Source: Uloborus diversus
Taxonomy: Eukaryota
Direction of reading: 5' to 3'
NCBI RefSeq assembly: GCF_026930045.1
Contig: NC_072731.1
Span: forward strand, 137,946,156 to 138,010,155
DNA length: 64,000 nt
Numbering within the stretch: position 1 is the stretch's first letter; each line of letters begins with the position of its first letter. A program made the position numbers and the translations under genes. Positions 4,790 to 63,039 of this stretch are shown one piece after another. The notes below the pieces were generated by a model. It ran no database searches, had not been told where the DNA came from, and saw only the letters and a program-made list of their open reading frames with translations.

Positions 4790-5340
4790 TCAATGGTTAA
4801 CTCTCTAATTGTCACCAATAGTGGCCAAAATAAAACCAGATTTAAAAATTAAAAACGCCAAGTGGGCGAAAAAACTTGGTGACCAAAAGTTTGGCGATGT
4901 ATTGCCAAGTGTTTGACAAATTATTACACCACTTGAGTTTGCATTGAAATTAACAATGATTTCCCCCCCCCCCAAAAGTGCAAAAGACCCCCTTAGGAAC
5001 ATCCAAATGCAACCAATAAGGGAGGTGCACAACTAGACTTCACTAGGAGTCTACATACCAAATTTCAACTTTCTAGGACATACCGTTTTTGAGTTATGTG
5101 AGACACACATACACATATGCACATACATACTTATATACATATGGACCTCACGAGAAAACTCATTGTAATTAACTCGGGGATTGTCAAAATGAATATTTCT
5201 GGTGTCTATATGTCTTTAAGCATACATCCACATGTGGTCCGGTTGAAAAAAAAAAAACTCATATTAATTCGGGGGTGAGTGAAATGGAAATAAAGCCCAG
5301 TTTTTGAGTGAAAATTTTTTCCCGAATACAATACTTACTT
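4790..5340. repeat. about 520-bp dispersed/tandem repeat family, solo copy
   Basis: Shares roughly 80% identity over its length with the two tandem units at 34190-35275. Common segments include GTTTGCATTGAAATTAACAATGATTTCCCCCC and AATACAATACTT(A/C)CTTTA...AAAAGGAAGTAA, which ends in a hairpin. Confidence 0.7.
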
Positions 5341-6979
5341 TATTATGTAAAAGGAAGTAATAAAAGCATATTTAATAAAAAAAAATAAAATTGACTTTGT
5401 AAAATAACAGAAACAGTTAAAATGTTTTACATTCATTTTGAAGGAAAAAATAGAAAAAACAAAAAAAACCCCAAGATTTTCAAACACAAGAGAAAGCAAA
5501 CCTAAATATATTGCTCGTGTATGGGTCAATCTCACAGGATGCTACAATTGCAAAATTTGATACCTCAAAAACATATTGGGGAAAGCTCTATTTAAACAGG
5601 GCCATAAGTGAACATGGTATGTTTTACTAAAATAACATAATTAGAAGTTAAAAAATCTTGACAAAGTCTCAAGTGATGATATAGTACCAGTCCCACCTCT
5701 CTTTGTAAAACTTTTAGAGCGATGAATCATTTTGTGCATCTGTGGTCACAGGTTTAGCAGGTGTGGTAATTTTATCACCGACTTCTATAAATGGAAATAG
5801 TTTAAACTAACTAATAAGCTAAACTTAACTGTTGCAAATCATTATACGAACATTCGGATAAGTTGATGACTATATTCAATTCAAATTTCTTAATTTCTGC
5901 AAATTGGTCCAAAGGCAAATTAGTCCTGATGAGGCACTTGGTGAAAACACAGCACCAGGAAATTATTTTATTTACTATTTTATTACTATTTTATTCTTAG
6001 TTACATAACAGCTAAAAATAAATAGAGAAAAATAGTGGACACATATTTTGAAGGACAGTATTTTGTAATATTATCTGAGAATGACTCATATGCATACACA
6101 CACTTCTGTCAAAAAACCAAAGTCAAAAAGCGTTAGAAAAAAATACCAGTTGTTTAGTTAGAGAAAAAAAACCAAACTGATCAGCTGTGCATGCAAGTAA
6201 TTCACATTTAGTTTCAATGACAAATTTTCAACTGTGTACAGAAAACACTAAACTATTAGCAGATATCTTTTTTAAAGGGGACAATTTCATTTTTACTATA
6301 TGAATAATTTTTGAAATGTTTTGCTTATGCAACAGCAGATTACTCACAAAGGCAGCATAAACATCCCTCAAGGTGATGTCTAGGGCCAATGAGAATTCCA
6401 ATTCGTGTCTGGAGATTGAAGTAAATGCAATCAAAATTTGATTTTAATATTAAGTAGATATTCAGCCAAACCTAAAAATGCTTTGATGCCAAATATTTTA
6501 CAAAGTGTGGGAAATATATTCATTTTAATGCAACAATTTAAGATTTTATAGCACACTAAGAGTGGTTCTACCTAGAGATCAACATCACTTTCCCAATGAT
6601 AATAACTGTACGAGCCTCGGGTATTCAAATTGGCTTTCATAACTGTTTGTCTTAACACAGAACTATTTTGATGACTATACCAACATTAATATATAGTTTT
6701 CAGACACACATACACAAGTATAACAATGAAGCATTTCAGTGGACCACTTAATGGAATGCCCCTCGCCCAACTTATGCTATGCTCCATTTGTCATGAATAA
6801 AATATAAAACACTCTCGAATTAAAAACATGTTTTCACTTTCCCTGAGTTGATAGAGATCAGTCATTTTGCTCCACTTTATCAGCCCTAGTAACAGGAATG
6901 TACTAAAAACATACCCTCCACATCGAACACTTAATATTAATTACATATTTTGACTGACACAACATAAACATCATCCACA

Positions 6980-11842: not shown

Positions 11843-12727
11843 CTCATATATAGTTAAAGGAATTTATACTAGATTACACCATTCAAAAAAAAAAAAAAAA
11901 AAGAAAGAAAGAAAAAAAAATCCACCTCACTATGTGACTGACTGATAGACTCTGAACAACCGAAGCAAAATTGTAGTAAAAAACAATTTATATAAATAGC
12001 ACATTGACAATGTAAATAAAAGTTTAAATCAAATAAATGAGCTTGAATAGTTAAGATCAGTGAAAAAATTATTTCTATATTTCTGACATACTACAAAGTG
12101 AAAAAGCGTGTAAGAAAAATATGGATCAGCACAGAGATATTCAGATTTATAGAGAGTTTTGAATAACTTAATTTATTAGCAAAAAACTAAACAATATATT
12201 ACATATGCTTCAATTGCTAAGACTTGACAGCAACAACTAATCTTTGACTATTCTGAGCCATCCTGTTACCACAGCAGTAGTAGGAAACAATATTTAGTGC
12301 TCATTGAATTTGAAGAAATACTTAAATTCAATCCCAGTCAGATATGTATAGCCATTTTAAATTCTTATCAAAACTTTCTTACTCATACACCACAAGAATA
12401 AAAAAGTCCATGTAGTGAATCTTTTCTAACCATTAATACATTCAATCACTTTAGTATATACCCATGCAAGAAAATTTAAAATGAACTAGACTTAGAGCAA
12501 ACTAGTATTAAAGGAATTGCAGAACATACAATGTCATCCAGGTTATCCAACTTAAAATAAACAAGGAAAAAAAAAAGATTATTCAAATTACACCATGAAA
12601 TAAAGAAAATATCACCAAGCATATATTTAAATAAGAGAAAAACAGCATTAATTGCACTTTAAAGGATCGAGTTATTGTCTATAATGAAATGTATAACATA
12701 ATTTCTTAATAGACAAAAAATGCTTAC

Positions 12728-12916
12728 TTGAAAATCTTGACCAGCTGCAGCTACCGACTTAATAGTATCAGTACCTAAGCTTTGAATCAGACTTGTGCAT
12801 TTCTTAATTTCAATCTCTGCCAGTTGCTGAGACTTTGCAATTTCAAGTTCATTTTTCTTTGAAAGGTAGTCTAACTCTGCAGTACGTGCTTTTTGCAATC
12901 TTTCCAATTCCATTTC
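12728..12916 (-). CDS. MVP: MVP coding exon 13
   Basis: Acceptor cctttcag, donor GTAAGC. Reads EMELERLQKARTAELDYLSKKNELEIAKSQQLAEIEIKKCTSLIQSLGTDTIKSVAAAGQDFQ. Human has [63 protein letters not shown]. Confidence 0.9.
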
Positions 12917-26635: not shown

Positions 26636-27502
26636 CTTAAAATACAATAATTCTTTAGTAAAATGATTCTTTGGTTTATATATAGAATGTACTTGTAATA
26701 GTAAATTAGAAACAGTTCTTTTCATGTTTTAATTTTCACTGAATTATACACTTTAGTAAAACATGATTGCCTAATTTGAAAGACATAAAATTTCTAAAAT
26801 AAAATGTTTTTTACATCTAATTAATTTTTCTAGGACAAATTTATTTTAATTATTATACAAATAATTATTAATGAGTTTTTTTTGTAATAAAGGTATATTA
26901 AAAATACTAAAAATATTCTGTATATGAAACATATGAATGCTAGCTTATATGGAATAAAAATCAGAATATAAAGTACAAAAAGTAGAATAGAATCATAAGT
27001 GAAATAGAATTGCGTGAGATTCTTTTATTTTCAACATGAAGGCATATGTAAAACACGTTCACTAACTTTAATATTTAATAAGAGAACAAAGATATTTTAC
27101 ACTGAAATGCAGAAAAAATATCTTGGAAGGAAAAAACTGTTAAATATATAGTGCAAAAGCTGGAGCACAAACTCATTTTTAAAACTAAAACTGTGTAATA
27201 AAATACTACCCTATAAACACAATGTTTAAAGGCAAAATAATAATAAGTGCAGCTATTAATTCAATAAATGAAAAAACCAGCACTTAAGTTAGGCAAAAGC
27301 ATTTTTTTTATGCATTCTGCTATAATGTGAAATGTCTGCAGTGTAATTTAAATACTAGATGGCTAGAAAAAAAATTCTTAAAAATTTCCAAGCAAATTCA
27401 AGAACTTTTGAAACAAAAGTATACATTTCACAGAAACTATATAAAGCATTCTTTATAATTTTTCATAGTAAAAAGTTTAGAAAAGATAGTTTTTTAAAAT
27501 AC

Positions 27503-27768
27503 CTTGATTGTTTTTTCTTATAATCATATACTTGAACAGCAGCATTATGCGGCACACGTAAGGTAATAGCTTTGGCCCCATCCTCTTCTGATTTGTGAGT
27601 CTTGGTCTGCACAGCTGGTGCATTTGCTGATCGCATCCTCCATGTACCACGATCACTTAAAGGGTCAGTTCCTTGAGTTAGAAGTTCTTGTACTTGAGCT
27701 GGCAATTCTTTAATCCACAATTCTTCATCTTGAGTCAACATGTATGTTGAGCCAGACACTAGGCGAAC
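27503..27768 (-). CDS. MVP: MVP coding exon 8
   Basis: ORF-track frame reads [41 protein letters not shown]...[21 protein letters not shown](R). Acceptor ttttttag, donor GTATTT, ends in phase 2. Human has [41 protein letters not shown]...[20 protein letters not shown]. Confidence 0.9.
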
Positions 27769-34189: not shown

Positions 34190-35275
34190 TAAACTCTCTA
34201 AATATTACCAATAGAGGCCAAAATAAAACCAGATTTTAAAAAAAAACGCCAAATTTGTAACCAAGTTGGCGACATAACTTCGCGACCAAAAGCTCGGCGA
34301 TATATCACCAAGTGCTTGACAAATTATAACACAACTTGAGTTTGCATTGAAATTAACAATGATTTCCCCCCAAAAAGGTGTAAAAAGACCCCCTTTGGAA
34401 CATACAAATGCAACCAAAAGGGGAGGTGCACAACTAGACCCCACTAGGAGTCTACGTACCAAATTTCAACTTTCAAAGACATACCATTTTCGAGTTATGG
34501 GAGATACATATACACATACGTACATACATACCTACATATGGACGTCACGAGAAAACTCGTAATTAACTCGAGCATCCTCAAAATGGATATTTCGGGTTTC
34601 TATACGTTCTTAAGCATGCATGTATCTATGTGTGGTCGGGTTGGAAAAAAACTCAATATTCATTCAGGGGCGAGCAAAATGGAAATTAAGGCTGACTTTT
34701 GGGTGAAATTTTTTTTGCGAATACAATACTTCCTTTACTTTGTAAAAGGAAGTAAAAAAAACACAAAAATTTGTTGCCAAGTTGGCGAAGAAACTTGGCG
34801 GCCAAAAGCTTAGCGATATATCGCCAAGTGTTTGCCAAATTATAACACCACTTGAGTTTGCATTGAAATTAACAATGATTTCCCCCCAAAAAGGTGCAAA
34901 AGACCCCCCTTTGGAACATTTGAATGAAACCAAAACAGGAGGTGCATAACTAGACCGTACTATGAGTCTACGAACTAAATTTCAACTTTCTAAGACATAC
35001 CGTTTTTGAATTATGCGAGATACATACACACATACATACAGACATCATGAGAAAATTCATTGTAATTCATTCAGGGATTGTCAAAATGGATATTTCGGGT
35101 GTCTATACGTTCTTAGGCATATATTCACGTGTGGTCGGGTTGAAAAAAAAAACTCAATATTCATTCGGGGGCTAGCAAAATGGAAATTAAGCCTGATTTT
35201 TTGGTGAAAATTTTTTCGTGAATACAATACTTCCTTTACTTTATAAAAGGAAGTAAAATATATAAACATTTTTTA
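34190..35275. repeat. tandem dimer of the about 520-bp repeat (units about 34190-34760 and 34760-35275)
   Basis: The two units align throughout. Each ends with the hairpin TACTTCCTTTACTTTGTAAAAGGAAGTA. The ORF-track ORFs here are artefacts of the repeat. Confidence 0.75.
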
Positions 35276-35724
35276 CCCCTAAATCAGTTTGACTCCGACT
35301 CCACAGCCCCGCTTTTTAGCCCTTATTTTTCCTGTAACTTTTAAATTTAGCATTTTATTTTCAATCATTTCTTCTTGCTGATCCATAGTAAGTGTTATGA
35401 CTAATCTAATGCTGGGCTATCTTGCAGACTACTTTGGGGTTTTTTAATCTCCAATGCCGAATACTGAAAAATGTTCTGCTACCTTAATAACAGCTTAACA
35501 GCCCAATTGCATAAGTAACTACAGGGATTCTTATCAACATTGATCATAGTTCAACTTATAAGATATGAAATCATTCAATTATTTATTTTTATCTTTCTGG
35601 TGAGCAAAGAATGTAATTCTTCACTGTTAGGTACGAAATGTGTACAGAAAAGAATCCTTTTACATTCAGTTCAGTAAAAAAAATCAGTGTTTAAATACAA
35701 ATAGAAATTTTTTTTTCTTTCTAC

Positions 35725-35961
35725 CTTTATCAGTTTCTTTCGCCCAAACTGTGGTTTCCCATCAGTGCCAATTGGATCAAGAATCACGCAATATTGACGA
35801 TTAGAGAGAGTAGTAATATTGACTAAACCTAACACATTTTCATAGACTCCGGGAATATAGGTTTCAGTATCTTTGATAGTGACTAACCACTCTTCTCCAT
35901 TTTTCCTTGTTTTGCCAAAATCATCAACAAAAGTTTTTTGAGCTTTGACATGAACTGCTTC
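35725..35961 (-). CDS. MVP: MVP coding exon 5
   Basis: Acceptor ttttatag, donor GTAGAA (weak but unique). Reads [79 protein letters not shown], 79 codons. Human has ...[58 protein letters not shown]. Confidence 0.85.
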
Positions 35962-37253
35962 CTATAAAACAGAAAAAAAAATGAGGACAGTAAAAATAAC
36001 TAATGAAACTTAAGATTCTAAAAATGTTTAGTCACCCCCCCCCCTCTTTTTTTTTTTTTTTTTTTGAGTTACTCAATTTAAAAACCAGTGCTTTAATCAA
36101 TGGTTGAATATCCGCAATTTTAGTTTTTGTATTATTCAATTGCAAAATAAAAAAGTGTCCTAAAGTTGTTGCTATTATTTTGTATTGGTGTTTTTCAGTT
36201 ATTTTGATTTAATAATTTTTCATTTTCATTTTTTGATCAACGTACAGTATTAGTATATGTTTTCTCTACTGCAGTTGACTCTCCAGAGTCTTGTAACTCG
36301 AATTTTCCTTCATCTTGAAGATTTAATTCAGTCCCGAAATAATTTAGATTTTTCAATAAAGTTGTCTCTATGTCTGAAATGTACTCATTTTAAGTTGAAG
36401 TTTTTAAAAAAAGTTTTGTTTTTATTTTATGCACAAAAATGCAGCTAAAATGAGAGAAAAAAAAAAACATTTTCCCCTCTTTAACACATTGCTTAGCTTA
36501 TTAGCTTGTATGAGGGTGTGCAGTGTTGCAAGATTGCATGAGAAGTAGCTCCACCTAATCAGAAAGTATCAAATTTTGCAAACATTTTATTGCTGTACCT
36601 GGAAAATTCGAAAAACCTGGATTAGTCAAATTGTGTTTTGCTAACTTAACGGCCTTTTGAGAGGCACTAAAAAAAACATGTAAGCAATCAACAATTTCTT
36701 TTTTTCTTTTTTTTTTTTTTAAGTGATTTAATAAAATTTATTCTTTGTAAAGATATTTTATTTGTAGTACTAACAATCAATTTTATAACAATAAGTATTA
36801 TAGTCTATCTTTTATGCACCATTCTTAAAAAAGAAAATAAAAATTATTCTTTAGAAGGCTGGGAAAGGAATTTCTTATAACCCAAACTACCGATTACTCA
36901 AAGGTTTTAACCAGATCTTTGAGACTTCGAGTTATTGAGAGTTGACTGTATGTATCTTTTAATTATTTATACAAGTTTCATTTTGTACATCTCTCTGGGT
37001 AAGAATTTCAAATAATCTACAAATTGAAAATATGTAAGAATGTCTTCCATTTCAGCTTAAGAAACCGAATGACAGCTAAAAGCAAAATTTAAAAGGATCA
37101 AATTTTAGAAAATCATTTCTAAGCAAACATCATATAACATCTGAACTATACTAAAAATAATCTTGTCTAAAAAGGCAAAAAGATGAGAATGTACGGATCA
37201 ATTTCATATTAGTATAAAAATTAAAACTTACACATAAAATGTTATATACTTAC

Positions 37254-37480
37254 TTTCTCAGTTAATACATATGCATTCACTACATCTATAACTTCTTCAT
37301 AGGCTCCTGGTAAATAGGCTCCACTTTTTTTAACAATCCATTCTTCCCCAGTTACCCTTAGCTTACCATCACGGTCTTTAGTTTCAGCACGAGCACGGAG
37401 TTTTAAAGCTTGGTTTGGATTAATAACCTCTGCTGAAACTGTTTCCACAACTTCAACTTCCTTTCTTGGCACAAAGGTTC
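37254..37480 (-). CDS. MVP: MVP coding exon 4
   Basis: ORF-track frame reads (G)[75 protein letters not shown]. Acceptor aattaaag, donor GTAAGT. Human has [49 protein letters not shown]...VILTEK. Confidence 0.9.
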
Positions 37481-38872
37481 CTTTAATTATAAAGAAATTC
37501 AAGTGGATAAAAATGTCATTTTTACTACTAAATTATTTTAGACGTATTTATACATCTAAAATTGATAACTGAAACATTGTACAAATAGCCTTACAACAAA
37601 CTTCAAGGGAGGAAAGTTTTTTTTTTTTTTTTGTAGTAACGGGAATTTTGTTGCAATGGAATTCAAGCAATAAAACAGCAATAAATTTGGGACTAAAAAT
37701 TCATTTTGACTAAACGGAAATTTTTTGTATTTGTTGTAACGGTATTTCACTGCATTTCCATATAAAAATCATTTGAAAATTCAGTAAAATTTCATACTCT
37801 TGTTTAAAAAACATAGCAATACACTTGGCTTTTGAAAAATAAATGGGAATTATAAAATTCATTAATTAGCTTAAAGTTAACACTAATTTTAAAATTCATA
37901 TTTAAGCTTAAATTTTAAGTTTAACTTTCAAAAGGTTTAAAATGTTTCACTATAACACCCATGAAAAAGAAAAAAAAACAGAGCAAACACTTAGCATAAC
38001 AAACTTAAGTGGTGGAAAGCAACTCCTTGCACATGTCACGACCAGTTTTATAGTTACAAACGTGATCAAAAAATGTAAATTTAAGTATCGCCACAGAATC
38101 TCTCATTTAGGATTTTCAAACCATTATTTAGTAAAAGAATTTTAAATATGGCTAGTAGAATTTTATTTCTTTAAGCATTCTTTTTGTACTTAAAAATAAC
38201 TAAATCTTAATTCCAAACTTTGTTATTGGCAAGGAGAACAAGAAATTTCTTCAGTCGCAAAATCAGTCCAATTCTGACTCCGTGAGCACTGGCAGAGTTA
38301 CAGACAATGAGGGAAAATGACTGACTACGACTTCATCTCTTGAAATTTTAAATCTTTGACTCCTGACTCCGATTTCTTTACCCCATAACCAGTCTGACTT
38401 CAACTCCACAGCTTGGTTTCAACCCATCTTCTGAAGATAAAGAAGTTCAAACACAATTGCTATCCCATCCTTAGCTCAAGAGGTTAAGCTTAGATTAAAA
38501 CAATACTCAGATATTTTAAAAGGATTATGGACAAACAACATAAGCATTTAAAGTAGCCAATTCCTGATAGCTTGAAGCCTTAAAACTCAAATATTCCTGT
38601 GTCTCAAACTTTTTGTTGGGTCCCAAACTCCAGAGCAGGCTGAGGGAACTTTCCTTAACTCAAACTACCAATATTTCGAAAATTTTCAAATGGTCCCTTG
38701 GGACTTCCAAGTTATTGGGAGTTGACTGTATAGTTGATTAACACTTTTTTTCAGTATTTTATATGCCTGAAATACTCAAGGCTTCAAAACCTAAATTAAG
38801 AAAAAGAATTGGTTCCACAAGACCTCACACCACAAATTTAAGAACTGCAAAAAATTTTTTTTCTAAAATTAC

Positions 38873-38993: not shown

Positions 38994-41169
38994 CTGAAAA
39001 GAAAAGGTGAACTAGATTTACAAAACTGTTAAAGTTTTAAAAGATTTATTATGGACTAGCAAAAATACCCGGCATTGCCTGGGTCTGTAATGATTATGAG
39101 AAACAACCGCCACTTTTATTCATTTTCTGCTTTAACAGAAATAACTCAAAACACATCGCTTTGACATGATTGAAAATCGAGCTTCCTCCCCACCCATAAA
39201 AGTAAAATGACAATAATATGAAAAACAAAATAGTATCCTTTTATAAACGAAAAAACGACACTTAAGCATCTACAAATTTGAAGAATTTCCAAAGTATGAA
39301 ATTAAACTTCATTTGTTTCAAAAGATTTATCAGTTTTTTTTTAACATAGTCTAAAACCTTCTCTATATTGCCATTGAAGTACAAACAGTTTTTCAAAAAT
39401 GTAGCCGCTCGTAATCTCTAACTGTGATTAAAAATGTTACCAAATTTGCGGTAATCATTTCGGGATACCTTGGATAAGACTCTCCCTCCCTACTTTGTAA
39501 AACTGTGTGTTACTAATTTGCATCGAAGAGATATTGTCGCTAAATACTGAGATACTTCTGATGACTATTAACTGATGCTACCAGAAATTTTTCCAAAATA
39601 ATTAGTAAAATTTGGCAATTGTTTGAAATTGTGTGCAAAGACAAATTAATGGACATTTTTGTGCTGTTTATGGATTTGATTAATTTAATTGGCGGATTAC
39701 ATTTTAACAAAAGTTTTAAAGATTCTTTTAAAGGCCACATTTTGGTTTACGTGGTGAAAACTAAGAAACAGTATTGTGTAGTCTTTAGCTTCAAAAACAG
39801 CGACAGTTGAAAAAATTGCCAAATGCCTTAACTATTGAAATCTTTCCGCAAAAAAAGTTTGGCGAAATTCCTGCTGGTCTTGAACAATTAGATGAAGAGC
39901 AAAAATATTCAACCATTATCAACAGAGCTGAGATGATACACTAAATACTAAATTGGGTAGGTGAAAGCCTTTATTTTACTTAGAAATTTCGAACAGGTGC
40001 CATCTTCAGCAGAAAAATCAGAGCTTTCAATGGACATATAATGTTCATGCGCTAGTATTTCTCCCCCTCTCAAATTAGGGAATTTATACGAAAATTGCCC
40101 CCTATGGGGGGTTTTGCCCCCCATTACGGGAAAAAAGTACCCTATGTGTTATTCTGATGCAATTGAGGTACCAGTAATGGTCTAAATCAGCGTTTGGAAA
40201 CTAGAAGAAAGGGGTCCAGATCCGGATTGCAGATTGTCAAAAACTAGACTGTCAAAAATGTTTTTAAAGCAACTGTATAAGAAAAATTTGTGTGTATGCA
40301 ACAATACCTTTATGCCTCACTTTTGTCACTTCTTCTAGTGTTTGAGGCAATTGCATGACTTTTTAAAGTTTTTAATGGTTAGCATAGAATATGATGGTTT
40401 TTCCTGGACCAGGATAAAAATTTTCAAAAGTATTCAGAAACCCAACTAAAATTACTTGCAGATCCCTGGTCTAAATATACCAGTAATGGGCTATTTAATG
40501 ATAATCAGTCAATTGGAAAAATAAATTTTAAAGAATTTTATCATGACATTATTCATTAACAAAAACCTCATAAGTATACCTTAATTTAAAGTAAAAACCT
40601 ACAAGTCTTAACTTCCACTAGGCTCCAGTAATGAGTATACTAAATTTCAGATGAACCAAATGGCCTACCTAATTGTGCAACTTAATATATATGGTTTATC
40701 ACAAAAAAAGCTAATTTTTCAAAGTATATTTTTTAAAAAACCATCAAAATCGTTATAAAGCAGTTCTTAAGGTTAACCACTTAGTTTCATTAGTAATAAG
40801 CCAAAAATCTGTCTAATGGGCTAAAAGGGTATTAATAATGGATCTGATGGTTGATTACTGCTTCTGATTATCAAATAAATTAAACCAAAAGCATGCAAAA
40901 AGTCACATCTAAGTACAAACTAAAGAGCAAACCAGCAAACTCAAAACAAGCTTGCATTCTAAAAAGAGGTCAACATTCTTAATAATGGAAAAATTGAGTA
41001 ACATAGGACATCAAGTCAGGAATTCAACTCTAAGGATTTTGAAGAAAATACTTCTTTTTCAAGAAGTACAATTTAAAAGAAAATGTATCTGTTCCATAAA
41101 AACAAATATTTAAAGCATTATAGCCATACTTCTGATCAATATTGGAGAAAAATCAATATCTTTACTTAA

Positions 41170-44100
41170 GGGGACCGTGGACCTTCCAAATAGCTCAAAT
41201 CGGTCAAAAATATGATTTTTTTATTCCGTGGAAGTAACAATATATGAAGTGTGCTGAATCGTATGAAAAAACCTCTTGTTGATCTGACGTTTTATCGCGA
41301 AGTTATATGCGTTTAAAAAAAAGTAAACAAAGCGTATTTTCCATTAAAATGACTGTAAAACATGTAAACAAAGTCGAAAAACTAAGTAAAACTAAGTGTC
41401 AAAAATGTAAACTTAGTTTTAATAAATTCTATCATTGGTATTAATGTCAAATATTTAGTCATCGTGAAAATATCTTTCGGGAGGTATTAAAATACGAAGA
41501 ACATGAAATGTAGTTGAAATTAGACTTTAACGTCATTTATCTCGGACTGGAAAATTCGATGCGACACAGATTGGAAAAAGCTCCATGCGACTTAATATTT
41601 GTTCGATATGCTTCAAATTTCAGAATATGATACTTTGGTAGTAGTTTGATAAAACTGGGTATGCATTAAGGTTTAAGAGAATTTTATGTTGCTTAAAAAT
41701 ATTAAAGTTTTGATTTTTATGTAATATTCGCAACAAAAACTATTGCTTTACGCGAAAAAAAATACTGTGCAGTTAATAATGGACCAATCCTTAACTGTTT
41801 AACCGCCGAACTACTGTTGGAAGATCAAATTTGAGTAATTTTTTGAAATTATGTCTATTTATGTCTAGTAAATACAGAAATAAAATAAAACTTCCAGAAA
41901 ATTTTTTTTTACTATGTTTTTCAGTGTGTTCCATTTTTGAAACATTGGCGCTTTGCATGAAGTTTTTTTTTTTCAGAGAATTTTTTTAAACTAAGAGGTT
42001 TTGAATGCAGTTTTTATCTTAGCATACTTTATTACGGAAAAAATAATATTTTATATTGCATTTATGTACATACCAGAATTCAGAAAATCCAATACAGAAA
42101 TATCTAATGCCCATGATATGAAAAGAAGCATTGCTGGTGAAGTCATTTGTCGCAATGGAAACATTTCTTAGTCGTATTTTTTTTGCACACCGCACAACGT
42201 CCCTGGGATGCAGATACAATGAAATGTCCGTCAGACATTCTTGATTTTTTATGTAAATGACAACGAGGCCCTGGATGACTTTCCACTCGTACTTTTCTTC
42301 TTAGAAGGTGAGTTGTTATTTCTCTTCGGAACTCTAAATGCTTCATCTTGACTTCGTGTAACTCACAATGAAGTAACCAACTAGCTACAACTGAAATATT
42401 CAGAGCATTACTAAAAAGATTCCACTACCATTTTTTACTCCTCAAATGAGGTCTGTAGCTCCCTAAAAGTTTATCCAAGACGTCCACGCCCCCCATTCCT
42501 TCATTGTATCTCTTGATAAGATGAGGTTGTGGCACATCTATCTTGCATTTCTGCGCATATGAGTAACATTTTACAGATGCAAGTGGCTCATGTGTATAAC
42601 AATTAGATGCTACTGTAACCACTGCATTATCATTCCAGCCGCACATGTACATTGATCCATCAGATCGATAGTCAAAATTTCCTCGATCTTCTTTAGAAAG
42701 GGCTTTTTTGGATTTCAGTGGACAATGAGCAGTTCGGTTTTCACGAATTGTTCCTGTTGCTCATACACCTTTTTTTGATAGCTGAGAAATTAAGTCATAT
42801 GATGTAAAAAAAGTTATCAAAGTATACTTCATGCTTAGACGTGTCAGTCAAAACTGATAATAGATCATTTACAAATCTGGATCCTAACTGCACACCAGGG
42901 GATCCTTCTTTTTTGCTTGAATAAATCTCCATGGAATATGGGTATCCACTTGAAGGGCACAGCATCCAAATTTTGAAACCGAATCTTATTGGTTTTCCTC
43001 TAATAAACATTTTACATGAATGCTGACCGTAGTAGGGATCCCTAGATTCTATGCTCAATTTTTCATGAAATACACCAAATTGTTGAAGGTTTTTACACAA
43101 TTCTTCGTAAATAGGGTATACTTTTCCAAGTTTGTCATTTTGTTTTAATTCATGATTGTCCATCAAATGAAAGTTGTTTTTTATTTTTCAAAAAAGATTT
43201 CGAGGTATAACTGTTGGTACAATTGGCACAGATGTATCTTCTGCATTGCTCCAATACATATCTTCAGAAGGAACAGAATGGTATCCACTCAATAGCAGCA
43301 AACCAAAAAATTGTAGGATTTCATTTCTGTCAACATCTATTGATTCTCCTTTTTGCAATGCATACAAGTTTGTCACATTTGCTAAGTGTTCAACATACTG
43401 CAAAGGTAAAATTTTAAAAAATAAATCAATTGGAGATAAATCCACTATATTCGGAAATGCGTGTTTAAGCGATTCAATACTTTTTGACGAAATCAGTTTC
43501 TGAAAGTTAGCTTTCTTCTCCCAAGTTAAATCCATTTTCATTCTTTTTCTACTTTTATTTCCTGATAATTCCAACTTTTTCTTTTTTTCCGTTTTCATTC
43601 GCTTTTTTACTTTTATTATCTAATGATTTCAGACTTTGTTCTTCCTCCGATTTTTTTGTTAATTTTCACGAGAGTTGGCGGAAAAAATGTCCACCTGTCC
43701 ACATACATCAATTGGTGTAATATGTTGTAACTCGTCTTCTAGAATGTCTTCTTCCTCAGTGATATTGCCTGGTTCATCACGGGGTAATTGGCATATATCT
43801 ACATCTGACAAATTCGAATCTGACAATGTCTCTAAATAAGCCACAGCTTGTTCTACAGTAAGAAATCTTGTAGACATTTTTTAACATTTATGAACAGTTG
43901 GTATACGTCAAACAGAATTTCGTTTCACTCGAAAACAAAGCTAGCGAAATATTGAACTGCATTTAAAATATGAAGAATAAAACGCTCACTAATATTGTTT
44001 TTTATTATCATGTGACAATGCAGCTGTCTGAGCAGGTGTGGATTAGGAGCCATATAGTTCGTTAAACAGTAGACTATTATTTTCTTTGCTAACGAAACAT

Positions 44101-44897
44101 CATATCCTTTCAAAATATAAACTTACTTAGTTTTGCCAACATCTACATCAGAGTACATTCAAAATGAGAAGAAAAAAGAAACATATATTACGAAAAATGA
44201 AATTTCCCCTTTAAAGTCGAATAATTTACTTCTTGGAAATTTGACTCCCTAAAAGCGCCAATGTTCCAAAATTGGAACATGTTATTTTGAAGGGGTACAC
44301 CTTTTGGAAATATCATTGTACATTTCTACAAGCCTTTTAAAATCATACGTTGAAGTATTTTTCACAACTATAATAAATATCATCACATTTTCTGAAAAAG
44401 CCAATTTTTGGTAAGTTTTATAAGAAAAAGTTGGAAAAAGCTAAAAAAACACTCATCTTTGAAAAATCGCAATAAATAATTAAAAATATATAAACAATCA
44501 AGTAGGAAATCAAAAAATACTTTGAAATAAGACTAAACTGTGTTAAAAAAAAACTTGTTTATTTTAACGTTATTTCTTGGGAAAATTTTCAGTTAAATAT
44601 GATGTTCCATTTTTGGAACATTGGCGGGTAAACGGTGGATACCCAAAGCTCTTGGCAATGTTCTGTTCTTTTATAAAATGCAAATTTTTTGAGAAAACAG
44701 CAAAAATTGAGTCGCATGGAGCATTTTAAAATTTTTATTTTAAATTTCAAAATTTTTGATTTTAATTAAATTTTTATATTGTTGCATTTTTTTTTGCTTG
44801 ATATTTTGCATGCTAATAAACTCACTAACTTTTATGCCCAGTTTCATATTTCAAAATTAATAAACAAAAGAAAAAGCTTTCAAGGTCCACGATCCCC
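41170..44897 (-). mobile_element. piggyBac-like DNA transposon, complete ends, decayed transposase
   Basis: Left end reads TTAA|GGGGACCGTGGACCTT (TTAA at 41166-41169). Right end reads AAGGTCCACGATCCCC|TTAA (TTAA at 44898-44901). The inverted repeats match at about 15 of 16 positions. Subterminal repeats GTTCCATTTTTGGAACATTGGCG occur at about 41925, 44255 (inverted) and 44605. Confidence 0.7.
42143..43877 (-). pseudogene. piggyBac-type transposase broken into at least 5 frame segments
   Basis: ORF fragments carry piggyBac hallmarks: ...ILQFFGLLLLSGY..., ...YYGQHSCKMFIRGKPIRFGFKIWMLC..., ...YNEGMGGVDVLDKL... and a C-terminal Cys-rich tail RCAVCKKNTTKKCFHCDK. Adjacent fragments are in different frames. 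Confidence 0.75.
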
Positions 44898-45387
44898 TTA
44901 AAAAAAAAAATAATAATTGAAAAATTATTGCTGTTTCAACTTCCTCAGAACTCAATAGTGTGTACTCGTTGTGCACAAATTAGCAAAAAAAAAAAAGCAT
45001 AGTTCAAAAAAACTATGGGATTATAAGAAACCCCTTTTTAGTGCAAACAGATATGAGCTTATGATAATAAGTATGTATAGCGGTTCATTTATTAGGAGAA
45101 ATTCATTAGAAGTTTCAGGTTTTACTTTCTCAATGGATACATTGAATGGATCGAATATGAACATAACAGAACATGAACATAGGGAGTGATCCTCAATTCG
45201 TATATGATTTTAAAAAATAAAGAGCTTAATATAACAATGTTCAAAAAAATTTGTAAAAAAAAAATTCATTAAAATAAAGCATATCAATTTCGAAAATTAA
45301 AAACAGCAATATCTAATTGTTAGAAAAAATGGACGAACATCCAAAACAATAATGAAATTACTTTTTTTAAGCAAACTACATACTTAC

Positions 45388-45583
45388 AGAGTGTATAATT
45401 TCACCAGGATACAATGGAAATGGATCTTGCTCTAACCTTACTTCAAAATCAGCATGCTTTAGTTTAATCTGACCTGTTTTATCAATTATCAAAGCATTTT
45501 CTTCACTTCGCATAACAGGATTGCGTATTACACAAAAGTGGCATGGTGGAATTATGATCATTTTTTGAGGTCCAAGGATTACA
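45388..45583 (-). CDS. MVP: MVP coding exon 2
   Basis: Acceptor cctttag, donor GTAAGT. Reads (H)[65 protein letters not shown]. Human has [24 protein letters not shown]...[25 protein letters not shown]. The phase joins the CA carried from exon 1. Confidence 0.88.
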
Positions 45584-46154
45584 CTAAAGGAGATGAAAGA
45601 TTTTGATGAATGTTTAAAGTGATAAAAAATGAGTTACGTAATTGCTGAAAAATTAATAGTTTCTATAGGAACAAATAAAAATAAATTAATAATTAATAAA
45701 AAAGGAAAGATGTCAAGATTTTGCTACACAACATTGCAGCCAGGTATGCTCCGGTAGGAAGTATCTGTGACCTCTCCATGTTTGGCAACTTTGGAGACAG
45801 TACTGCAATAGTACCTTTTTTTTTTCTTTCAAACTATGCCTAATATCTCATTAGATGTAGGAGGTATGTGCATTCTCAGTGGTTGAAAGTATCAAAGTAG
45901 CATGCTACAAGCAGAAAAACTATGGTAGTTCAGAAACTGAAACTTTCATTATGATGATGTCCAAAATCTGTTACCTACAGACCAATCATTAAATTTGCTA
46001 TTTATTAATTTTTATAAATACCTGCTGTCTTTTTATGTTTGTGCATGATGTTCTAGGTGTACATACAATGCAATAAAAGCAAAATTGATGTCAAATATCA
46101 AAATTTTAAAAATGTCTCAGAGTTAACTTTTTTGTTCCCACCTTTTGAGAACTA

Positions 46155-48711: not shown

Positions 48712-49111
48712 TCAGTGAAGATCAATGGCCCTCTTAAAACTATCTACTCCCTTACTCATTACCACCTCTTCCGGTAAGCTGTTCCAAGGTTCCGCTACCC
48801 TGCTAAAATAATCATTTTTCCTAATATCCATGTTAGCCTGAGATTTAAATAGCTTAAAACAATGATCCCTTGTCCTGTTTTCAGTGCTAAACTTCAGCCC
48901 CGTAACATCTTTCATTTTAATAAATTTAAACAACTGAATCATGTCCCCTCGGTCTCTTCTTTACTCAAGACTATACATTTTTAGCCTTCTAAGCCTGGAA
49001 TTATAGTCTAAATGAGAAAGTCCATTTATTAGCCTTGTAGCCTGCCTTTGAACCTTTTCCAATACACTAATATCTTTCTTAAGATAAAGAGACCAAAACT
49101 GAACAGCATAC
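48712..49111 (-). pseudogene. CR1/L2-like LINE reverse transcriptase C-terminal part and 3' region (same element, interrupted by a nested insertion)
   Basis: Reads VQFWSPYLKKDISVLEKVQRQATRLINGLSHLDYNSRLRRLKMYSLE*RRDRGDMIQLFKFIKMKDVTGL...FFSRVAEPWNSLPEEVVMSKGVDSFKRAIDLH, the conserved CR1-type C-terminal tail. The 3' UTR extends further down to roughly 48230. Confidence 0.8.
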
Positions 49112-49220: not shown

Positions 49221-51642
49221 ATATATATACATTTTTTTAGTATTAAAGAAATGAGAGGGAGGTGTATCTTACATACTTTGGAAAGGGGTGACCCTATTCC
49301 GATACTTGTGTCAAACAAAACAAAAGCAAGGAATTTTTTATTTTTTTTAATGTTGTGGAAAATTCAACTTTTTTTCCTTTTTCCTTTAATTTAAAGTGAA
49401 ATTTTCTAGCATTCTCTTGTCAAAACCAGTCTTTCCAAATCAAGGGGAAGTCAAATATCTGATGAGCGTGTTCCGTTCACTTCAGTGTGACTGCTTAATT
49501 TAGAGGCTAACACACATCTACAAAAGCTGGCATCCCTGAAAGCTAATAGATACTTCCATTTCTGCCTGTAAATTGGATGTTTGACTTTCAATCTCATCGG
49601 TGGTCAGACTATAAAGACTATTTTTACTAACTTGGTTTGCACTAAAAGTATGAAATAAAATAAAAAAAGACTTCTTGAATTATAACCCACAAAAAATAAA
49701 ATTGCTTTTCATATCGTTATATTTATATGTTGCTTTTTATGTATTTACATTTATGCTAAATCTAAAGCAGTTAATAAAATTTGAGTAAAAAAAGTTAGGG
49801 AAGAAATATAGGCGGTAGAAAGTTATTCGCTCAAATGCATACCATCTGTTCTCCTCTCAAGTCTTTATTTTTAATTTTATTAGCCGCTTTAGAATTTACA
49901 TAAATATCTATTTGAGAGTGCAACAGCAATTTTCGGGTATTATAAACAGAAGTCTTTTTTTTTTTCTACTTTTTAATCCGAACCAAGCTAATAGAAATAA
50001 TCTAGATTCATCTCGTTTTTAAACATTTTATTCATGTAATGCTATGCAGTTTTTCATTGAATTAAAATAAAATTACCTTCAGAAGGGTTCGATGGGACTG
50101 ATGTTGCTTTGCAGACTGTACTTCGTTTTCTTCAGACGACGTTAACTTTCTCTTTATAGAGCAATCCTTTTCGTCATTTTAATTTTTTTTTTTTTTTTTT
50201 TGGTTGAAAAAAGCTTGTTATCGGTCTTGCTCGCTTCATTATGCAACAACTTTCACTTAGAATGTACTATTTTAAACAGACTGTACGTTTCCAAAAGAAT
50301 ATGCAGTAAATACTGGATGAAAAATCAATGTGATTGCAAAGGATACTCTGGTTAGCAAAGGTCGTTTTGACTATGACCTATGACACACACGAAATCAGAC
50401 CAACAAAAACCTCTATCGTCTCGAATTCCGGTTAAGCTATCATTTTCGGATTCAAAGCAAAATGATCTTTAAAGCAGCAAACAAAAACATTTTCTTCAAC
50501 TCAGAAACAGAGGAAATGTCTTCAAGAGCTGAGGAGGCAGTGGAAAAAAGGGAGAAATGCGTTCCACGAATAGGCTTTCCAGGAAGATTAACCAAAGGAC
50601 AGTCGTTTCGCGCACTTTCTTGGAAGAAAAGTAAAGGGGTGAAATTCACAGGTTTGAAATGTTAAGATGAACATTTCAATTTCATGTTTAAAGATCATTC
50701 AAGTTAAAAACCATTTCGCTCTGTTATCCGGATTAGTACTGTTCTTTGGTAGCTCTCTTTCTTAAAATTGAGATTCCTTAGAAAACCGAAATGATAGGAG
50801 TGAAAAGAAAGTATAAGTTTTTTTCAAGTGATGAAAAAAGGAAAATTGTAGAATACTGACCAAGTTAGATTTGCTGCAATTGCTAACCTCAAGAGCATAA
50901 ATAATGAATCCAAAAAAAAAAAAAAAAAAAAAAAATCAGGGACCAAAAAGCAATAAAAGACTTCTTCTTGAAAAAGATATGCTTAAAGTTTCTTTTACTG
51001 TCAAAATGATTCCTTAAACTCTCAATAAAGCACTAAATAATGTAATAATAGAATAAATACCTAACAAAACTAATAAAGAGGAATTTTAATCAAGAGCCCA
51101 CGTTGTCTTTAGTATCGATTTCAAATTTTCACCATCATATTTCAAATTTCTATAAAAAGTCTCTTAAAGCCCCCGTATTTCAAAACGTCTTTATCTCGAT
51201 TTTTTTCTTTAATGTGAAATTCGAAATATACAGATACGACTGTATGCAATATTCCCACTGTGCGGCTCATAAAATTAAACATATTTAACAATTTGCAGAA
51301 TCAATGACAAACAAAGGCTGCATATACGTGGATTTAACAAATCAATCTCATTTCTAAAGCGAAGTGTCAACTTTCACTCAATTATCAAAAAATTGTCGCA
51401 GCAGAGGAAGGCGTCTTTATGCTTGAGGGTCACACATGGAGCAGATTTTCAATGGCATTGGGGGGGGGGGGGAGCGAAATGAATTTTTGACCTTTGTTAC
51501 TCAGTAAAAAGTCGTTTTGAATTTTTTTCTTTTTCTTCTTTTTTTTCTTTCTCTTCCCTCTTTTTCTCTTTTTTTTTTTTTTTTGACTAACGTTTCGGGG
51601 GGGGGGGTTGTCCCCAAAACCCCCCCCTTAGCTACGCCCCTG
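49112..51642. mobile_element. hAT-like non-autonomous element (2531 bp) nested in the LINE
   Basis: Inverted repeats CAGGGGCGTAGCTAG at 49112 and CTTAGCTACGCCCCTG at 51627-51642. A perfect 8-bp target-site duplication CAGCATAC flanks it at 49104-49111 and 51643-51650. Removing the element rejoins the reverse transcriptase frame as HLEYA|VQFWSPY. Inside are a (TA)n tract, G-runs and no transposase. Confidence 0.75.
49161..49230. repeat. (TA)n microsatellite (inside the nested hAT-like element)
   Basis: About 35 TA units, seen directly. Confidence 0.95.
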
Positions 51643-51650
51643 CAGCATAC

Positions 51651-52320
51651 TCCAAATGAGGTCTTACCAAACTTCTATATAAAGGCAGAAGAACTTCTTC
51701 AGATTTGTTTGAAATAGATCTATTGATAAACACAAGCATCTTATTGACTTTGTTACTAGCTATGCTGCACTGTAGGCTAAACTTTAAATCCTGACTTATT
51801 AAGATGATTAAGACCCAGATCAGTAACTTTTTCTGCCTGACTAATGACTGAACCTTGCAAATAATAACTTGTACACTTATTTCCATGCCCTAAATGTAGC
51901 ACTTGACATTTCCTAACATTAACAGCCCACTCCCTAATACGATCTAGATCCTCTTGCAGCTGATTTGCTCGTTCTTCATTTTCTACACTCCCCATAACTT
52001 TGACATCATCAGCAAAACAAGTCATGTTTCCAGGAATATTTTTATGAATATCGTTCATAAAAACAATTAACAAAACAGGCTCTACCACTGATCCTTAAGG
52101 AACCCCGATTAAAATCTCACTCCAATTAGAATAATTTTTCCTTACAACTACCTTCTGTTTCCCTCTGGTCAGCCAGTTTTTTACTCAAATGAAAGATTTC
52201 CCTCCTATTCCTATATCAGCAAATTTGCTAAGTAGAGCAACATACAGTACCTTATCGAAAGCTTTTTGAAAATCAATGTAAACAACATCTACAGGCTTCT
52301 TATTGTACAGATAGACGTAG
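51651..52320 (-). pseudogene. CR1/L2-like LINE reverse transcriptase fragment (5'-truncated element, upstream part)
   Basis: Minus strand reads YNKKPVDVVYIDFQKAFDKV...GSVVEPVLLIVFMNDIHKNIPGNMTCFADDVKV...LYRSLVRPHLEYA. These are the FxDFxKAFD and F/YADD reverse transcriptase motifs. There is one internal stop and one frameshift. Confidence 0.8.

Positions 52321-59705: not shown

Positions 59706-59788
<83 letters not shown>
59706..59788. repeat. (TA)n microsatellite
   Basis: About 40 TA units, seen directly. It lies about 60 bp from the left end of the second mariner. Confidence 0.95.
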
Positions 59789-59791
<3 letters not shown>

Positions 59792-59846
59792 ATGAAAAGA
59801 TTTTCAATGCTTGGTTTAAAAATTATGCCAAAAACATTCAGATTTG

Positions 59847-61175
59847 TATACGAGGTGTGGCTAGAAAAAAACCGAACTGATGCTATAAAAAAAATTTATT
59901 TTCCATTATTTACAATTTGATGTTATCTCCTTCAATGTACTCTCCTCCTCGGTCTATACACCGCTCCATACGAATTTTCCACTGTTCATAGCAATGCTGC
60001 AGATCATTTTCGGTAAGTCCATACATTACTTCCGTCGCTTTTTCTTTTACTGCTTCAACACTCTCAAATCTAGTTCCTTTCAAAGCTGATTTGACTTTAG
60101 GGAAAAGAAAATAATCACAGGGGCCAAATCAGGTGAGTAGGGTGGATAGTCTAAGATGGGAATGTTGTGATTGGCTAAAAACGTCTTCACTGACAACGCA
60201 TTGTGAGCTGGGGCATTGTCTTGGTGCAGGATCCATGTCTTTTTTTTTCCACAAATCATTCCGTTTTCTCCGTACTCGCTCACGTAGGGTAGTCAGGACG
60301 CTAATGTAGTAATGCTGATTCACTGTTTGTCCCTCTGGTACCCAATCAATGTGTACAATCCCTTTGACATCAAAAAAAACAATCATCATTGCCTTGAATT
60401 TAGATTTTGACATTCGTGCTTTTTTTTGTCGTGGAGAATCAGGAGATTTCCAATGCATCGACTGGCGTTTGGTTTCAGGATCGTAGGTAAAAAACCACGA
60501 TTCATCACAAGTAATAACATTTTGTAAAAAGGTGGGATTTCTTTCAATGTTTTCTAGGATGTCAGAACAAATCATTCTTCGGCGTTCCTTCTGTTCAATT
60601 GTGAGACACTTTGGAACCATTTTTGCACACACTTTGTTCATGTCGAAACTTTCATGAAGATTCTGCCTAACTCTTTCCTTGTCAATTCCTGTCAACTCAG
60701 ACATTGCTCTGATTGTTAAACGGCGATCTTCTCGAACAAGTTTACCGATTTTTTCAATGTTTGCATCAGTTTTTGCTGACAATGGTCTGCCAGTGCGAGC
60801 GTCATCACTTGTGTCTTCGCGGCCATCTTTAAATCGTTTAAACCACTCAAACACTTGTGTTCGCGATAAACAATCATTGCCATAAACTTGTTGCAACATT
60901 ACAAACGTTTCACTTGCTGATTTTCCAAGTTTGAAAAGAAATTTGATGTTAACACGCTGTTCTTTCTGTACACTCAACATTTTTCCGACACACAGACAAA
61001 ACGTCAACTACTTAGAACAGACGCCACAGGCAGACTGAGTGCAGGAGGCAGATGAAACTCGAGCAGTAGGTGGAGCAAGAGTCACGTCACAGGCCAGGCG
61101 ACTTTCAGCCTTATTGCATTCGTTTTATTGTTTCACCTGTGCTAGTTCGGTTTTTTTCTAGCCGCACCTTGTATT
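59847..61175 (-). mobile_element. second mariner-family element, near full length
   Basis: Inverted repeats TACGAGGTGTGGCTAGAAAAAAACCGAACT at 59849-59878 and GCTAGTTCGGTTTTTTTCTAGCCGCACCTTGTA at 61141-61173 match at 28 of 30 positions. They share the TACGAGG start with the other mariner. Confidence 0.8.
59910..60980 (-). pseudogene. mariner transposase with two frameshifts in homopolymer runs
   Basis: The ORF runs MLSVQKEQRVNIKF...ITCDESWFF...WKKK and then shifts at a T9 run near 60241-60250. The next frame gives TWILHQDNAPAH...YSPDLAP. It shifts again at a C-run near 60120 and then reads FFPKVKSALKGTRFESVEAVKEKATEVMYGLTENDLQHCYEQWKIRMERCIDRGGEYIEGDNIKL to the stop. Confidence 0.8.
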
Positions 61176-63039
61176 CTAACCAGATTCTACTGGATTATTG
61201 AAATGAGGGAGTTATGTTTCAACACCAGACTTGTGTGAATATTTAGCTTTTGAAAAAATAATTGCTCTTGTGATTAAGATTTATCATAATTTCTAAGGAG
61301 CAAGGAGGGCACATCAAACGTTAATTTAAAAGGGGCAGGGCGCAGTGCCCTCCTAAAAAGGTCTGGGGGAAACTAATCAAAGGAAGAGAAATAAGTAAAT
61401 TCTTGTATTTTATTTAATTCTGAAAAGAATAGTTTTAAAATTTAAACTGTATACATACTCGCTAAAAAAGAAGTTATGTTGCTCACTATAGACCTGAAAA
61501 TATCCACTATCCACTTGCTATGATTGAAAAAAAACGGCAACTTTTTTTCCTGCATTTTTTCTCTTTTATTACTTTCTTTTCACAATATGAGTTTTTTTTT
61601 TCACTCACATTTTTCAGTTTATGAAATGTATCAGAATTATTGCTAAGCAGAGCTTTTCAACCCATAATTCACTAGTAGTACATTTTGTCTTAATATGACA
61701 CATCATACAACATGCTGCTATTGCAATTAAATAAGCACATAATGTACCAGACAGCCTGGTTATCACATCCATAGACTGCCATTTCATTCTTACCAGAACT
61801 CATCAGTCTGGAATGGTGAATAACCAAGCTGGAGGCAGATGTCATCTCATTCAAGCTGAGAGTTCCAACAATAGCTCATTATAAGAAGTATCCTTAACCA
61901 AAAAATTGCTGAAAAATTATGGAAAACTAATTTATATTGTTATCCATAATGGTTCTTTACATTGAAATATATCACAACTAAATTCCAAAGTTTAAAATTA
62001 TGAAAATAAAGTGCAAATACAGGCATAAGAATTTCTAATTTGTACAAATGGATTGAGCAAAGTATGAAAGATAATTGAAGTAAGGTTTTCATACTGACTC
62101 AAAAATTTTCAAGTGTTATACCGTATTACCCTGCATTATCCGGCATGCCGCAAAATTCGGAGGTCACCAGATTTTCAATAACACTCTTCTGGTCCTTTCC
62201 GGCATGCAAGAAAAATCGAGGTGAGAGAAAAAAAAATAATATTATAAAAAAAAATATGTTCAGCTTAAAAATGAATGTAAGGTCTGTACATATAAGTATT
62301 AACAGTTTAATTTTGTAAAAATATTAACAAACATTTTCATTTGTTATTTTAACAAGAAAAATATTGTTTAATAACAAATAATTTATAAAAATTAAATAAA
62401 CATATACCATGTCTATTCAATAAATAAAAATTAAACTTGCTCTCTAAAAAAAAAACCTAAAATAATTTATTTAAAAAAATCATGAACAAATTGCTGTATC
62501 GATGATTGCTTCTTGATTGATTACTTTATTGGCATAAATAACAAGCAGATATTATATGCAACACATATTTTTTTTTTGAAAGAAGGTTACTTTTGAAATC
62601 TAATTTTTTTTCTTACAGTAGTTTGCTTTCTGATTTACTTTTGTTTTGTTGCAAAATAAACCTTGAATTATCCAGCATGCTGCAAAATTCAAATTTTCCG
62701 GCATGCTGGTCAACCTCGCTTTTTTCTGGCATGCCCGATAATACGGGGTAATACAACATTCAGTTTACTCACTGTTGTGATTTTACAAATATTTAATCAG
62801 TGCTGTGCTGCTTTTATGTTCTATGTTATGGACTCTCATTGTAAAATATGCTTCAAATGACCTCACCCTCTTCTCTCTTTTTTTTTTCTTTGATGATTCT
62901 ATTTTTAAAATTTGATTTATAGCTTCATAGACTCCTCTCAAAATTCTGATTGATTTAATTTAAAGTCCATTATAATTCATGGTTTTCTCATTCATGTATA
63001 AAAAGATGTATAAATATCTCATAAATTGATACTTTTCTA

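Follow-up and report, generated by a model that had tools for sequence, protein, structure and literature searches.

The 64,000-nucleotide stretch of the Uloborus diversus genome analyzed here (the window; NC_072731.1, positions 137,946,156 to 138,010,155 of the forward strand) is taken up for most of its length by the major vault protein (MVP) gene, which lies on the minus strand with long introns (12662-53168). Concatenated, its vault exons match the major vault protein of Uloborus diversus at 85% identity, and the next-best match stands at 61%. The MVP intron between 45379 and 37532 contains a piggyBac transposase pseudogene in the same orientation as the gene, enclosed by two pairs of inverted repeats that lie one inside the other. 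A first-pass annotation had taken the outer pair as the boundary and described a complete 3.7-kb piggyBac-like element with atypical GGGG termini. We find that the intron very probably holds a nested pair of DNA transposons, a piggyBac element inserted into a short element that has terminal inverted repeats (TIRs) of its own. The coordinates are collected in Table 1.

The conceptual translation of the pseudogene, read from 43877 to 42104, matches the Pfam profile DDE_Tnp_1_7 (PF13843) along its entire length (1-349 of 349, E=3e-74; 250.9 bits, where the cut-off is 22.4); the first-pass annotation had proposed a search with this profile as a check on the piggyBac core that it recognized, and the core is borne out. 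The C-terminal Cys-rich finger that it also described is present as the tail RCAVCKKNTTKKCFHCDK (stop) LHQQCFFSYH, which is collinear with the C-terminus of P0001, an intact relative, and with that of piggyBat. The decay of the coding sequence was likewise correctly seen, though it is spread over two frames rather than at least five: tblastn with P0001 gives two segments, in frame -3 (43877-42807) and frame -1 (42811-42113), which place one frameshift near 42807-42811. Seven stops interrupt the frame (TAA 43661, TGA 43631, TAG 43622, TGA 43190, TGA 42763, TAG 42427 and TGA 42145), three of them within a 24-residue insertion relative to P0001 that also holds a 58-bp tandem duplication. A reassigned genetic code is excluded as the cause of the stops, since all three kinds occur (one TAA, two TAG and four TGA). 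The first catalytic Asp was lost through a 3-bp deletion near 43050, which turned SIDES into SI-ES, while the second (VYFDNFF) and third (GGVDVLD) catalytic Asp motifs are present. An autonomous copy has an intact DDD triad and an open frame; with its Asp lost and its frame both shifted and interrupted by stops, the window copy is unable to act alone, and it is a dead member of its family, not a non-member.

To place the ends of the element that encoded this transposase, the conceptual translation was used in a protein search, which returned 392 relatives, and the contigs encoding relatives were compared for their ends. The best protein matches were P0001 (66% identity) and P0002 (57%), and the named matches, 'PGBD3-like' proteins, came from a spider, a tick, Trichinella and a lobster. 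Ends were obtained for five relatives (L002, L003, L004, L142 and L143; 51-59% protein identity to the window copy), and these follow the consensus TTAA-CC(T/G)TTTA...TAAAAGG-TTAA. Apart from L143, their 5' TIRs read CCTTTTAC(A)CG(C/G)C or CCTTTTAAAGTCC; read inward, the 3' TIRs are CCTTTTAAACGCC, CCTTTTAAAGTCC and CCTTTTACACGCC, and three of the five also show the 3' end, as ...GGCGTTTAAAAGG-TTAA or a closely similar sequence. The element of Stegodyphus mimosarum (L142) is complete at 3803-6838 of KK119963.1, where it runs TTAA-CCTTTTACACGGC...GGCGTGTAAAAGG-TTAA, and its product is annotated as 'PiggyBac transposable element-derived protein 3, partial'. The contig of the closest relative (L001, 66%) is short and carries neither end, with only the second of the three palindromes described below, and in the Trichinella relative (L005) the family ends and palindromes were not recognizable.

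Homologous ends are found in the window at 41795 and 44635, 625 and 262 bp inside the ends set by the GGGG repeats (625 bp on the left, 262 bp on the right). The ends of the inner element read CCGTTTAMCCGCCAATGTTCC..., with 13-bp TIRs CYGTTTAMCCGCC; in transposase orientation its 3' end reads ...TTCGGCGGTTAAACAG, with 41795 as the last base and TTAA directly after it (41791-41794). When the 5' ends of the window copy, L002, L003 and L004 are aligned, conservation starts exactly at TTAA-CC and continues for 35 nt with unrelated sequence outside, and at the 3' end similarity likewise begins exactly at the element end beside unrelated outer flanks. A TATCCAC heptamer outside the 5' end, common to the window and L143, was considered as homology continuing past the end and was rejected as chance, its alignment score being below the shuffle mean. 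Published piggyBac-like TIRs start with CCYT (PMC5601938), and their first base is a highly conserved C across 157 elements (PMC5381638). Against a test on these lines, which asks for C-first TIRs of 12-19 bp with a CCYT-type tip, the inner TIRs are 13 bp long and begin with CC; the G at their third base is outside the published C[CAT][CAT] motif and is common to L143. The outer GGGG tips have neither C as first base nor the ends shared by elements with the same transposase. The length of the inner element, 2,841 bp, can be compared with 2,355-3,165 bp among the relatives and with a mean of 2,813 bp for published piggyBac-like elements (PMC5381638). A structurally complete piggyBac-like element is present, as the first-pass annotation said, although it is dead and it ends at 41795 and 44635, not at the GGGG repeats.

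Independent positional evidence for these termini comes from a 23-nt motif, GTTCCATTTTTGGAACATTGGCG, that occurs at 41928 (+), 44256 (-) and 44604 (+) with 0-1 mismatches, where none is expected by chance. The motif is palindromic (7+6+7, ATGTTCC-N6-GGAACAT) and is flanked by CGCCA. In all five relatives palindrome 1 begins at bp 15 of the 5' end; palindrome 2 begins at bp 354-356 in 4/4, and the end of palindrome 3 lies 130-132 bp from the 3' end in 3/3. The window palindromes are in the family register only when counted from the inner ends, which marks 41795 and 44635 as the true ends of the piggyBac. The three repeats had been reported as subterminal to the GGGG ends; they are real and are part of the piggyBac element, but they lie ~270-760 bp from the GGGG ends, distances that match nothing in the relatives. 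The 5' end of the family is laid out as the tip CC(T/G)TTTA, a short G/C block (CACGCC or CCGCC) and the A/T-centred palindrome at bp 15-34. In piggyBat and piggyBac, whose two ends are asymmetric, the palindrome bound by a dimer of the C-terminal Cys-rich domain (CRD) lies a few bp inside the tip (PMC11707139). By analogy, the palindromes are most likely the binding sites for CRD dimers of this transposase.

The family contigs differ greatly in GC content, have identical TIR and palindrome distances, and carry transposase frames called as open. They come from Stegodyphus (L142) and from soil or other and Tara marine metagenomes (L002, L003, L004 and L143), and this spread over a spider and over marine and other metagenomes suggests a broad range of hosts or horizontal transfer.

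The GGGG repeats themselves are genuine, and much of what had been said of them holds. They are 15/16 identical, they are the only such pair in the window, and TTAA adjoins each on its outer side, so that the left junction reads ...CTTTAC-TTAA-GGGGACCGTGGACCTT... (41166-41185), the right junction ...AAGGTCCACGATCCCC-TTAA-AAAA... (44882-44901), and the ends overall TTAA-GGGGACC...GGATCCCC-TTAA. Even with 3 mismatches allowed, the 16-nt TIR matches the window at these two places only, and two or more matches were reached in 0/100 dinucleotide shuffles at the same tolerance. Its tips, GGGGAYCGTGGACC, are purine-first (5'-GG...CC-3'). Between the repeats and the piggyBac ends lie two non-coding arms, together ~880 bp, that have a second inverted repeat in common (24/27 matches, 13 exact), which suggests that a single element was split into them. 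Neither arm is related to the piggyBac family: every local alignment of the arms with the flanks of the relatives scored inside the shuffle range, and the GGGG repeat was found in none of the five relatives. The GGGG repeats are therefore those of a second element, which would be the older of the two and would have been interrupted by piggyBac.

Under this model, a non-autonomous element of ~880 bp with 16-bp TIRs GGGGAYCGTGGACCTT (5'-GG...CC-3') would have inserted first, with duplication of TTAA. A 2,841-bp piggyBac of a PGBD3/piggyBat-like lineage, moving when intact by the standard piggyBac cut-and-paste reaction at TTAA, would later have entered the TTAA at 41791-41794, in an outer element that would until then have read ...CCAATCC-TTAA-TACCCAAAG... 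The window copy of piggyBac would subsequently have decayed through the frameshift, the seven stops, the Asp deletion and the change of one flanking TTAA to TGGA. The outer element, though presumably the older, keeps both of its TTAA copies, and the inner 5' flank is TGGA (44636-44639).

Table 1. Positions, within the window, of the two elements and the host gene, with the 5' ends of the piggyBac relatives
Feature	Position	Strand	Remark
Vault-repeat exons (MVP)	~52.9 kb, 45379-45633, 37245-37532, 35674-35961, 27466-27768, 14838-15215, 12662-12976	-	
TTAA, left target-site duplication of outer element	41166-41169	.	read directly
Outer element, left TIR GGGGACCGTGGACCTT	41170-41185	+	15/16 identical to right copy
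Outer element, left arm	41170-41790	.	621 bp, non-coding, without homology to relatives' flanks
Internal inverted repeat of outer element, left copy, core GCTCCATGCGACT	41575-41601	.	pairs with 44701-44727
TTAA adjoining inner 3' end, target site inside outer element	41791-41794	.	aligns with TTAA after ...TAAAAGG in L002, L004 and L142
Inner piggyBac-like element	41795-44635	-	2,841 bp, structurally complete but dead; both ends homologous to ends of five relatives
Inner 3' TIR CTGTTTAACCGCC, read inward	41795-41807	+	11/13 against 5' TIR
Palindrome 3, CGCCA-ATGTTTCAAAAATGGAACAC	41926-41950	-	ends 131 bp from 3' end
piggyBac transposase pseudogene	42104-43877	-	DDE_Tnp_1_7 core and C-terminal Cys-rich domain
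58-bp tandem duplication	43545-43653	-	71% identity, N-terminal coding region
Palindrome 2, ATGTTCCAATTTTGGAACAT-TGGCG	44256-44280	-	flank inverted; starts bp 356 from 5' end
Palindrome 1, CGCCA-ATGTTCCAAAAATGGAACAT	44602-44626	-	starts bp 15 from 5' end, abuts TIR
Inner 5' TIR CCGTTTACCCGCC, read inward	44623-44635	-	first base 44635
TGGA where second TTAA of inner duplication is expected	44636-44639	.	degenerate or altered; TTAA in all five relatives
Outer element, right arm	44640-44897	.	258 bp, holds inverted repeat copy 44701-44727
Outer element, right TIR GGGGATCGTGGACCTT, read inward	44882-44897	-	reverse complement of 44882-44897; 15/16 against left copy
TTAA, right target-site duplication of outer element	44898-44901	.	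read directly
5' end of relative L002			TTAA-CCTTTTACACGCCAATGTTCC...
5' end of relative L003			TTAA-CCTTTTACACGCCAATGTTCC...
5' end of relative L004			TTAA-CCTTTTAAAGTCC...
5' end of relative L142 (Stegodyphus mimosarum)			TTAA-CCTTTTACACGGC...
5' end of relative L143			TTAA-CCGTTTAACCGCC...; differs by one base from either window TIR

Several observations weigh against this arrangement or parts of it. The inner element has TTAA on one side only, and TGGA on the other requires two substitutions or a small rearrangement. The second inverted repeat of the arms is of modest significance, its 13 exact matches being reached in 9/500 shuffles. The outer element has no second copy in the window or in the metagenome and viral collections; a scan of those collections with GGGGAYCGTGGACCTT gave 136 matches, all single, unpaired, mostly on GC-rich contigs and with no extended arm similarity, and these were set aside as chance matches. 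Nor were further copies of the inner element found in the window. Lastly, the class proposed below for the outer element draws on two short features, and its junctions can be read just as well as a TA duplication bordering AGGGG...CCCCT tips.

Kolobok elements generate TTAA duplications and have 5'-RR...YY-3' tips (PMC9587614), and the outer element has both TTAA duplications and termini of this type (5'-GG...CC-3'). Judged by target site and tip type, it may be a non-autonomous Kolobok-type element resembling the T2-MITEs (MITE, miniature inverted-repeat transposable element), an assignment that we regard as evenly balanced. That the nesting is right and the outer element is something else, such as a Tc1/mariner-type MITE with a TA target, a member of another superfamily with 4-bp duplications or an unclassified element, is rather unlikely. 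Sola is one such 4-bp-duplication superfamily. The junctions ...ACT-TA-AGGGG and CCCCT-TA-AAA fit a TA duplication, and mariners are present in the same window. However, TTAA with purine-purine tips is the published Kolobok diagnostic (PMC9587614), a Xenopus Kolobok TIR reads AGGGGAAC after TTAA (PMC6004289), and the TIRs of both window mariners (TACGAGGGCTATCC... and TATACGAGGTGTGGC...) are unrelated to the outer TIR. A mariner-derived MITE was rejected on this last ground, though the TA parse is possible.

It is improbable that the GGGGAYCGTGGACCTT element represents an undescribed TTAA-targeting family, whether mobilized by a piggyBac-type transposase despite its G-first tips or as a composite carrying piggyBac, and that, separately, the triple palindrome is an undescribed end architecture of PGBD3/piggyBat-like elements. 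Less probable still is that the outer ends together with their piggyBac cargo form the mobile unit, moved by a transposase that recognizes the GGGG ends. The outer ends are indeed better kept, with 1 mismatch in 16 bp and both TTAA copies, than the inner junction with its TGGA; yet there is one copy in the window and none was recovered from the metagenome and viral collections, and simple insertion into a resident element suffices without such a unit.

The single 3.7-kb element of the first-pass annotation, with the TTAA-flanked GGGG repeats as the true termini of an atypical-end family, is scarcely tenable. It accounts for a piggyBac transposase enclosed by a significant 15/16 inverted repeat that has TTAA on either side, but the five relatives end in the CC(T/G)TTTA consensus and none has the GGGG repeat, the window itself has the homologous inner ends with the palindromes in register from them, the outer arms match nothing in the relatives, and piggyBac-like TIRs open with a C that is highly conserved (PMC5381638). 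That annotation had named different ends in other copies as what would overturn its claim that the GGGG ends define a piggyBac family, and by that measure the claim is refuted. A chance match or the product of a local rearrangement is a negligible explanation of the outer repeat, for although only a single pair exists in the available sequence, two matches did not arise in the shuffles, both copies abut TTAA and the arms have the second inverted repeat in common.

The nested pair is accompanied by other mobile elements and repeats in the window. A mariner at 19156-20493 with perfect 33-bp TIRs TACGAGGGCTATCCAGAAAGTAGATTACGTTTT and an uninterrupted transposase open reading frame (ORF) of 357 aa (19319-20392; Pfam HTH_48 and Transposase_1) looks young and may still be active. 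A second, older mariner at 59838-61184 has TIRs of 41 nt with 85% complementarity and, on the minus strand, an ORF of 292 aa (60129-61007) that leaves the transposase frame near its C-terminus; a long (TA)n tract at ~59706-59791 abuts this element. Reverse-transcriptase-like ORF fragments at 51635-52094 and 48715-48960, on the minus strand in another MVP intron, probably derive from a decayed retrotransposon of the type without long terminal repeats (non-LTR); their RVT_1 match (E=5e-5) does not reach the Pfam cut-off. An interspersed repeat occurs three times (4808-5032, 34208-34465 and 34667-34981), with minus-strand translations that have ...GGEIIVNFNANSSGVIICQTLG(D/N)(T/I)SP(N/S)FW... in common.

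The main value of the analysis lies in correction. A boundary drawn at the outermost TTAA-flanked inverted repeat would create a spurious "piggyBac family with GGGG termini", whereas the right annotation is of two ordinary elements, one nested in the other, a distinction relevant to repeat libraries for spider genomes. The residual novelty consists of an outer element without a class and of the palindromes of the inner family, whose arrangement is sharply conserved, the rest being an ordinary nested insertion. The TIR and three palindromes held at fixed distances despite ~50-60% protein identity predict CRD binding sites in piggyBat/PGBD3-like transposases.

Among known systems, the outer element is best compared with the non-autonomous Kolobok elements of Xenopus (T2-MITE/XKol), which likewise combine TTAA with RR...YY tips and whose TIRs include TTAA-AGGGGAACTATCATGA (PMC6004289). 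Set against GGGGACCGTGGACCTT, the likeness to the XKol TIR AGGGGAACTATCATGA is confined to the GGGGA tip, and at ~880 bp the outer element is longer than typical MITEs. For the inner element the closest comparison is with the five relatives, which have the same transposase family, 13-bp CC(T/G)TTTA... TIRs and the palindrome at the same positions; their transposase frames are open as called and TTAA stands at every captured end, whereas the window copy is dead, nested and flanked on one side by TGGA. The nearest solved structure is that of piggyBat from Myotis lucifugus (9c0f, E=4e-25), which is grouped here with the PGBD3/PGBD4-type lineage, and the logic of its ends is comparable, with a tip, a short G/C motif, an A/T-centred palindrome bound by a CRD dimer and asymmetry between the ends (PMC11707139). 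The similarity between piggyBat and the inner family is distant, the palindrome and tip sequences differ, and the likeness is here read from sequence; the right end of piggyBat is without a palindrome, whereas the inner family has one ~131 bp from its 3' end. The piggyBac of Trichoplusia ni is more distant than piggyBat (6x67, E=5e-16) and differs in its TIR and repeat sequences, and it resembles the inner family in its TTAA target, its 13-bp TIRs starting with CC, its DDE_Tnp_1_7 core, its C-terminal Cys-rich domain and its asymmetric palindromic subterminal repeats (PMC5381638, PMC11707139).

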